This document shows, one piece after another, positions 21,915 through 22,299 of a stretch of 64,000 nucleotides of DNA. This DNA is from Escherichia coli. GTDB taxonomy: Bacteria; Pseudomonadota; Gammaproteobacteria; Enterobacterales; Enterobacteriaceae. Each line of letters begins with the position of its first letter. The stretch's first letter is position 1. The DNA lies in the NCBI RefSeq assembly GCF_003334385.1, contig NZ_QOWN01000013.1; one strand, given 5' to 3'. A program made the translations under genes and the position numbers. Under the pieces are notes generated by a model. The model saw only the letters and a list, made by a program, of their open reading frames with translations, made no database searches and was not told the origin of the DNA.

Positions 21915-22299
21915 ATTTAATGAAGCATCTATCGCCGGTTGCGATGCTTTGCTGAACGCAGCCTGAGCCTGCAATTGTTTGTCGTCCATAATTTAACCTT
22001 CATTTGATGTTGAATTGAACATATCAAAATCAGGCAATTACACAAATCTATGTACAGGCTCCATCAAGGGTAAAGCGTGATTTATCTGAAGTCGAGTTCG
22101 AGTCAACAATGAAGCGTAAGCGTTTTATGTAGAACGCCTGTGCGGTGAGTTCAGGTTCCGGGGAAATAGTGTCCATCCTTTTAATGGACACTATCATGGG
22201 CAATGGCTCTGTCACATTAACAACTACAGTTGCTGACCAGCCGGATGGATGATTTTTTTGCACCCAGAAGACGTTGCCTCCGATCCGGCTTACAACAAG

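Follow-up and report, generated by a model that had tools for sequence, protein, structure and literature searches.

A palindrome between cvrA and dadX of Escherichia coli as a probable IS66-family left-end relic in the dadAX 3' untranslated region

Introduction

The spacer between the convergent genes cvrA and dadX of Escherichia coli contains a perfect palindrome on the downstream side of the dadAX operon, and the locus raises the question of where this palindrome came from and whether it takes part in forming the 3' end of the dadAX transcript. The DNA analysed here (the window) is a 64,000-nucleotide stretch that is K-12-like, with a cvrA-dadX spacer 100% identical to that of MG1655; this spacer has already served for neutral integration in K-12 (PMC9210752). 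An earlier sequence-only reading of the window had pointed out a 10-bp inverted repeat in the spacer, and had proposed a processing or stability hairpin, or else a protein-binding site, rather than an intrinsic terminator. The features of the locus are collected in Table 1. Positions in the K-12 genome (NC_000913.3) equal 1262249 minus the window position, a relation derived from ymgM and checked against printed flanking sequences, and the hairpin occupies 1240055-1240083 in these coordinates.

Table 1. Positions of the features of the cvrA-dadX locus in the window.
Feature	Position	Strand	Remarks
cvrA	20178-21914	+	
Read-through zone	21700-22160	-	C exceeds G past the hairpin; Rho peak at ~21736
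ymgM	21786-21989	-	annotated 67-codon sORF; incomplete pseudogene in RefSeq
cvrA-dadX spacer	21915-22299		385 bp between convergent genes
IS256-family (IS1414-like) left-end relic	21960-22070	-	from sequence comparison with plasmid copies
3' remnant of a leucine-rich-repeat (LRR) effector-like gene	22059-22132	+	last ~70 nt; stop codon TAG at 22130-22132
IS66-family left-end relic	22116-22195	+	80 bp, from the terminus GTAAGCG to just before the would-be tnpA start; includes the hairpin
dadX 3' terminus	22154-22166	-	1240083-1240095, peak 1240088 (window ~22161), in the supplementary data of PMC10687069
Palindrome/hairpin	22166-22194	.	arms 22166-22176 (ATAGTGTCCAT) and 22184-22194 (ATGGACACTAT)
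Branched RNA structure after the dadX stop codon	22229-22298	-	from folding; encloses an A7 run; 1240019/1240020 correspond to window 22230/22229
dadX	22300-23370	-	last gene of dadAX; its 3' UTR includes the hairpin

Results

Geometry and Folding of the Palindrome

An inverted-repeat search returned two arms of 11 nt each, 100% complementary to one another, around a 7-nt loop. The 10-bp repeat with a 9-nt spacer that the sequence-only reading had described was found at the same position and is this structure without its innermost pair; its placement in a 385-bp spacer downstream of dadAX was likewise correct, with the hairpin lying 105 nt past the dadX stop codon. The whole pattern occurs once in the 64-kb window and in none of 100 dinucleotide-preserving shuffles, and a first-order Markov model predicts about 0.13 perfect inverted repeats with arms of at least 11 bp and loops of 3–12 nt per 64 kb. 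Eight loci of the window, that of the palindrome included, carry perfect repeats with arms of 11 bp or more and a short loop. The other seven (3136-3163, 5586-5611, 37996-38021, 45114-45149, 48104-48139, 59942-59966, and 63467-63500), far above the number expected by chance, are presumably terminators or REP elements. One additional half-site with a single mismatch was present within the window, which corresponds to the chance level.

RNA folding, a check proposed together with the original observation, gave a stable stem on both strands. The calculated free energy was -14.3 kcal/mol (z -3.0) for the + strand RNA and -17.4 kcal/mol (z -5.4) for the - strand, or dadX-strand, RNA, in which 13 pairs, two of them G.U, form a stem running from 22195 to 22165. 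Only 4 of the 11 perfect pairs are G-C. The earlier statement that the repeat lacks a U-run was borne out on both strands: the stem is followed by CAUGGGCA (CAUGGG) on the + strand and by UUCCCCGG (UUCCCC) on the - strand, and at least five U in the 8 nt directly 3' of the stem, the U-tract looked for in an intrinsic terminator, were not found. Consensus scans of positions 21700-22500 detected no terminator and no promoter, and a scan of 21500-22700 against Rfam 15 at permissive E-values gave only chance-level matches (E of at least 0.95), none of them over the hairpin.

RefSeq carries no annotation over the hairpin, and the hairpin region had no match in phages by blastn and none in IMG/VR as an exact pattern with N7. 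A REP/BIME unit was rejected as an identity for the palindrome, which is found at one place per genome, at most two, where REP units number in the hundreds, and whose sequence is unlike REP; a repeated element or MITE was rejected as well, the region being single copy per genome. A small protein encoded by a 71-codon - strand open reading frame over the hairpin (22048-22263) was also considered and rejected; this frame starts with GTG, is unannotated, extends across three unrelated relics, and lacks a Shine-Dalgarno sequence. A 19-codon + strand frame at 22196-22255 (MGNGSVTLTTTVADQPDG, followed by a stop codon) has its ATG exactly where an intact IS66 element would begin tnpA; its product does not resemble TnpA, and the frame is probably without meaning.

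Similarity of the Palindrome to IS66-Family Left Ends

The first lead to IS66 elements came from an IS3-family insertion in the hairpin loop of strain E700025. A word-11 BLAST search of positions 22133-22230 against plasmids returned 33-nt matches (about 91% identity) lying exactly over the hairpin in about 1000 records, and these matches sit at the tnpA start of IS66-like elements; a single longer match of 61 nt (H184, E 1e-5) came from the same search, which covered 7.3 Gb of plasmids. The IS66-like elements begin with GTAAGCG and carry the palindrome about 50–80 nt inside, 4–6 nt before the tnpA start codon. The same GTAAGCG is present in the window at 22116, in register with the IS66 left ends up to the palindrome. 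Outside the palindrome, the 50 nt from 22116 to 22165 were identical at 37–39 positions (74–78%) to five IS66-family elements, a score reached by none of 2000 shuffles, and the local alignment between the relic and an IS66 end extended over 82 nt. The terminus itself was fixed by an 8-bp target duplication (ATTTTATC) around an element on a Klebsiella plasmid, and was validated by seven copies in one genome, which are common from GTAAGCG inward and have different flanks. The similarity ends at 22195/22196, where tnpA would start.

From these sequence comparisons, the palindrome is the conserved sub-terminal hairpin of an IS66-family left end of the ISCro1-like subgroup, present in the window as a relic and not as an element. 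ISCro1-like IS66 elements contain tnpA-tnpB-tnpC between GTAAGCG and CGCTTAC ends and are flanked by an 8-bp duplication, and positions 22116-22195 match their first ~80 bp in register. Unlike these intact elements, the relic consists of the left end only, without genes, right end, or target duplication: no tnpA, tnpB, or tnpC open reading frame was found between 22196 and dadX; a search of 22196-22299 for IS66 sequence or a right end gave no match, the only candidate for a right end, a weak one, being GGCTTAC at 22287-22293; and no 8-bp target duplication surrounds the relic, the flanks AATGAAGC and AACAAGTT being different. The sequence-only reading, which had placed the hairpin downstream of dadAX, missed that it is not dadAX DNA and originated as the palindrome of an IS66 relic in a decayed island that once held an LRR gene.

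Composition and Distribution of the Spacer

The spacers of 5426 complete E. coli genomes were sorted into three structural classes. About 3260 genomes had the K-12-like spacer; in a second class the spacer held an intact LRR gene, encoded on the + strand, and a third, ST131-type class had a 58-bp spacer with a different hairpin. The spacers of Salmonella, Citrobacter koseri, and C. freundii were 64–107 bp long, with unrelated structures and without the hairpin. Because the spacers of the ST131-type, Salmonella, and Citrobacter are all 58–107 bp, the short spacer is the ancestral form, and all K-12 DNA between the cvrA and dadX stop codons is acquired DNA that replaced it. The K-12 spacer combines the end of an IS256-family (IS1414-like) element, the last ~70 nt of the LRR gene, and the 80-bp IS66-family left-end relic. 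To our knowledge, neither this mosaic make-up nor the IS66 origin of the hairpin has been annotated so far. All three of the pieces buried at the site in use for neutral integration are of mobile or horizontally acquired origin.

The hairpin goes with this island and not with dadX. It was present as a single copy in 4298 of the 5426 E. coli genomes, while about 1100 E. coli genomes without it have a normal dadAX; in the ST131-type genomes and in strain HH45 the hairpin is absent and dadAX is intact. HH45 has a different, G+C-rich insert (L007, 3360-3500) in place of the LRR stump and the hairpin, and retains the ~50 bp nearest dadX though the hairpin is lost. Among spacers without the island (L018–L020 being those of Salmonella and Citrobacter), the ST131 hairpin (L008, 1796-1856) has a calculated free energy of -25.5 kcal/mol and that of C. 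koseri is REP-like. The presence of unrelated strong hairpins in the island-free lineages suggests that different structures fill the same functional position. Further variation was seen in O145-type strains (L002, and L010 from 53_142304), which carry another IS3-family element, with an ALIL frameshift pseudoknot, at about window position 22059. In four loci (L006, L007, L008, and L010), RefSeq describes cvrA as incomplete and missing its C-terminus (1671 vs 1737 bp), and the sequence up to the same TAA stop codon is present; these short calls look like an annotation artefact caused by an overlapping antisense pseudo-ORF.

The intact LRR gene encodes a protein of 437–480 amino acids and occupies the cvrA-dadX spacer of other E. 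coli and of Shigella, S. flexneri included (L004, 2122-3558; L003, L005, L012, L013, L015, and L016); it was found in roughly a fifth of E. coli. The protein contains LPX-type repeats and resembles the type III effectors SlrP/SspH2 in their LRR part. Members of this family were found in E. coli and Shigella only, at no other locus than this one, and their alleles are 76–95% identical; a scan of genome contigs for relatives outside E. coli returned a single contig, which was discarded as belonging to a contaminated MAG. The last five codons and the stop codon of the LRR gene (ending RKRFM) are encoded by the IS66 end, which suggests that an effector gene may here have been truncated at its 3' end. 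In each of the sampled strains with an LRR gene, the hairpin lies 33 nt past the LRR stop codon, a position that is explained by the IS66 insertion having supplied that stop codon.

As for the IS256-family piece, intact plasmid copies of the element have astA inside the transposase gene, which we take to be the hallmark of IS1414, and hence we call the relic IS1414-like. The annotated sORF ymgM begins with the first ~10 codons of the IS256-family (IS1414-like) transposase and then continues antisense to the 3' end of cvrA. It is part of the debris of the island and probably not a true gene.

Conservation and Variation of the Hairpin

Nine IS66 relatives were compared, including Klebsiella, Symbiopectobacterium, Edwardsiella, Xenorhabdus, Pantoea, and ISCro1-like elements. 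Their hairpin arms were almost invariant, with TnpA proteins down to 51% identical to the query TnpA, and their T-rich loops ranged from 7 to 10 nt, the length of the T-run changing even among close relatives; this variable spacing of the half-sites favours a hairpin loop over a DNA site bound by a dimer. Pairing was kept in 97.3% of the cells of the alignment. One compensatory pair (G-C to A-U) was observed, in two sequences, together with three one-sided arm changes, all of which give G.U on the tnpA-sense (+) strand, and an A.C mismatch in one sequence. Covariation across these IS66 homologues was not significant, 80 of 500 shuffles reaching the observed score in an underpowered comparison, and structure-specific selection is therefore suggested, not demonstrated.

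Within E. coli, the arms had one polymorphic site in 22 nt and the loop three in 7 nt, numbers too small for a test. SNPs in the loop were common, and the sole arm polymorphism seen was A-to-G at 22188 (ATGGGCACTAT in the right arm), carried by at least 420 of roughly 4240 genomes that have the region. On the dadX strand this change creates a C.A mismatch and weakens the stem from -17.4 to -12.3 kcal/mol, and on the + strand it leaves a G.U pair. The frequency of a SNP that weakens the dadX-strand stem thus gave no sign of selection for the structure on that strand.

Published 3' Ends of dadAX in K-12

A TRS analysis of RNAtag-seq data from MG1655 reports a 'distant primary' 3' terminus of dadX at 1240088 (PMC10687069, Supplementary Data 2, 3, and 4), and the 52 nt upstream of it, as folded by the authors, form this very hairpin at -17.4 kcal/mol. 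According to the table in that source, the dadX hairpin is followed by 3–4 U and the neighbouring fadR terminator by 6–8. The terminus was obtained from at least two MG1655 data sets, the authors' LB set and, apparently, that of Barsheshet et al. (PMC10687069). The mapped end falls 4–5 nt past the stem, within UUUCCCC. A dadX 3' terminus at the hairpin is thus already known from a published supplementary table, and the outcome that would have spoken against a hairpin acting in RNA, namely no RNA 3' end at the site, did not apply to these data.

The second source of mapped ends agrees only in part. Among the ends listed from Term-seq under three conditions by Adams et al., only 1240019/1240020 fall in the spacer and none at the hairpin (PMC7815308). 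The two Term-seq ends lie exactly at the base of the branched structure, upstream of the hairpin and 68 nt upstream of the terminus at 1240088. A steady-state 3' end directly past a stable stem-loop is therefore seen by RNAtag-seq, though not in the lists of this Term-seq study, suggesting that the end at the hairpin depends on the method or threshold and may be minor. On the + strand, no 3' end at the hairpin is among the K-12 data listed in either source (PMC7815308, PMC10687069).

Supplementary file 2 of the Term-seq study further lists a Rho-dependent stop at 1240513 with a score of 43, on the dadX strand and antisense to cvrA; reads upstream and downstream of it numbered 392 and 9 without bicyclomycin (BCM), and 303 and 300 with BCM (PMC7815308). 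This stop is located about 430 nt downstream of the hairpin and is among the stronger Rho scores in that study. Such a strong stop at this distance indicates substantial read-through past the hairpin and, being antisense to cvrA, indicates that transcription in the dadAX direction invades cvrA in antisense when Rho is inhibited. The C/G ratio of the RNA was 1.4–1.9 just past the hairpin and 2–4.8 further on; the C-rich stretch with the higher ratio (~21700-21950 on the - strand, antisense to the cvrA 3' end) coincides with the Rho peak.

Discussion

We regard it as probable that the palindrome is an IS66 relic hairpin of the dadAX 3' UTR that serves as a 3'-end-defining or stabilising hairpin, or as a weak terminator, through an incidental use of debris. 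In the mechanism that we propose, dadAX transcription would run on into the island DNA past dadX because no intrinsic terminator follows the gene; the - strand palindrome would fold into the 13-pair stem-loop, leaving a steady-state 3' end 4–5 nt downstream; and transcription passing the hairpin would be halted by Rho within the antisense of cvrA, a few hundred nt downstream. Two successive structures would hold the steady-state ends, with the IS66 relic hairpin as the second, and the hairpin would most likely mark or protect one of two alternative dadAX 3' ends, either by blocking 3'-5' exonucleases once Rho has ended transcription or by acting as a terminator that is weak and leaky. The earlier idea of a 3'-end or stability hairpin accords well with an end mapped 4–5 nt past a stem that lacks a U-run. 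The use of the hairpin at the end of dadAX looks like an incidental one, of mobile-element debris and not of a dedicated signal.

Rho-terminated mRNAs of E. coli generally end just past stable stem-loops without U-tracts (PMC6061677). The hairpin resembles these protective 3' stem-loops (Dar and Sorek 2018, PMC6061677) in having a stable stem, no U-tract, and an end a few nt downstream, as well as in the C-rich RNA that follows and in a BCM-sensitive stop farther downstream; it differs from them in that its stem is mobile-element debris not conserved with the gene, and in that one Term-seq study has no end there. By analogy with these structures, the most economical reading is that the hairpin works as the protective 3' stem-loop of a Rho-terminated transcript, for which a role of PNPase/RNase II is predicted. 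With canonical intrinsic terminators it shares its position at an operon end and the mapped 3' end nearby, and unlike them it lacks the required U-tract, has an A/U-rich stem base, and shows strong read-through.

Two other explanations accept an RNA end at the hairpin and differ in how it comes about. The palindrome might be inert debris without consequence for the K-12 genes, the 3' end merely reflecting exonucleases that stall on any stable stem. An IS relic that is missing from about 1100 E. coli genomes with a normal dadAX, whose dadX-strand stem is weakened by a common SNP, and which is preceded by another structure, closer to dadX, that already yields a 3' end, would fit this explanation, and we consider it possible though doubtful; the near absence of polymorphism in the arms as compared with the loop runs the other way, on too few sites for a test. 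It is, however, not exclusive of the reading that we prefer, as a stem on which exonucleases stall is in practice a 3'-end-defining element. Alternatively, the hairpin could be a weak, leaky intrinsic terminator that releases the dadAX transcript without processing; melting of the A-U pairs at the foot of the stem would leave UAUUUCC directly after the G-C core GUGUCC/GGACAC. The end at 1240088 is about 9 nt past this core, a terminator-like geometry, and the same strand in intact IS66 elements reads ACUAUUUUCCC, with one U more. Set against this, U makes up only four of the 8 nt after the core and is found once after the full stem, the consensus scan was negative, the published table counts 3–4 U here against 6–8 at the fadR terminator (PMC10687069), and the strong Rho stop ~430 nt downstream points to substantial read-through, so that we judge release by the hairpin itself to be unlikely.

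The remaining two explanations both seem to us quite improbable. That the palindrome acts as double-stranded DNA, for example as an operator for the HTH domain of IS66 TnpA or as a transposase site, would be in keeping with the HTH domains of TnpA (Pfam PF01527, PF13384) and with the arms just before tnpA, which keep their sequence and hardly covary, the pattern of an autoregulatory operator. However, the half-site spacer ranges between 7 and 10 nt, which would turn the half-sites against each other by more than 100 degrees and is more in keeping with a hairpin loop than with a palindromic operator of a transcription factor, all three one-sided arm changes give G.U on the tnpA-sense strand, and the copy in the window lies between convergent 3' ends, with no tnpA and no promoter-like site nearby. 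The protein-binding alternative of the sequence-only reading thus found no support. A + strand role, either at the 3' end of the LRR transcript or in both directions between the convergent LRR and dadX genes, with the hairpin orphaned in K-12 when the LRR gene was lost, draws on the constant distance of 33 nt from the LRR stop codon in all LRR-bearing strains sampled, whose alleles are only 76–95% identical, and on the G.U pair that the common A-to-G SNP keeps on this strand. That distance, however, is accounted for by the IS66 insertion that supplied the stop codon, a U-run is entirely lacking on the + strand, and no + strand 3' end is among the listed K-12 data.

If the hairpin is a 3'-end element as preferred here, the consequence for dadAX would be small: its 3' ends would be set by whatever structured DNA lies downstream, together with Rho, and a relic hairpin would now shape the 3' end of a housekeeping mRNA.

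We know of no description of a function of the palindrome in intact IS66 elements. Leader hairpins at the ends of IS10, IS50, and other insertion sequences limit transposase expression from outside transcription. The hairpin of intact IS66 relatives resembles them in its placement, inward of the IS terminus and only 4–6 nt ahead of the first start codon; no sign was seen that it occludes a ribosome-binding site, the GGA closest to the IS66 start codon being about 10 nt away from it. A broader proposal, which we put forward only tentatively, is that the palindrome is a functional cis-element of a large IS66 subgroup, controlling tnpA translation or ending outward or antisense transcription, which is also the specific landing site of an IS3-family element and of which a stranded copy became, in most E. 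coli, an alternative 3' end of dadAX.

The IS3-family element in strain E700025 is 1420 bp long (L009, 2581-4000) and is inserted in the T-run of the hairpin loop (window 22177-22183). Its ends are TGAACTGCGCCCC and GGGGCGCAGTTCA, with a 3–4-bp duplication (TTT/TTTT). The same IS was found on plasmids (L027–L030), where it interrupts the loop of an almost identical palindrome right before an IS66-like tnpA. The insertions have the same orientation in three independent contexts, namely the chromosomal relic, ISCro1-type elements, and a divergent IS66 element, which suggests that the targeting of the hairpin loop is directed by structure or sequence. IS1397 and ISKpn1 are known to insert into the loops of REP/PU palindromes (PMC1525189). 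The present case is like theirs in the presence of an IS3-family element in a palindrome loop, the short duplication, and the fixed orientation, and unlike theirs in that the target palindrome is not a REP, differs from it in sequence, and occurs only once in the chromosome. Should the leader hairpin of IS66 be functional and be a specific target of the IS3-family element, it would provide a small new example of structure-directed transposition.
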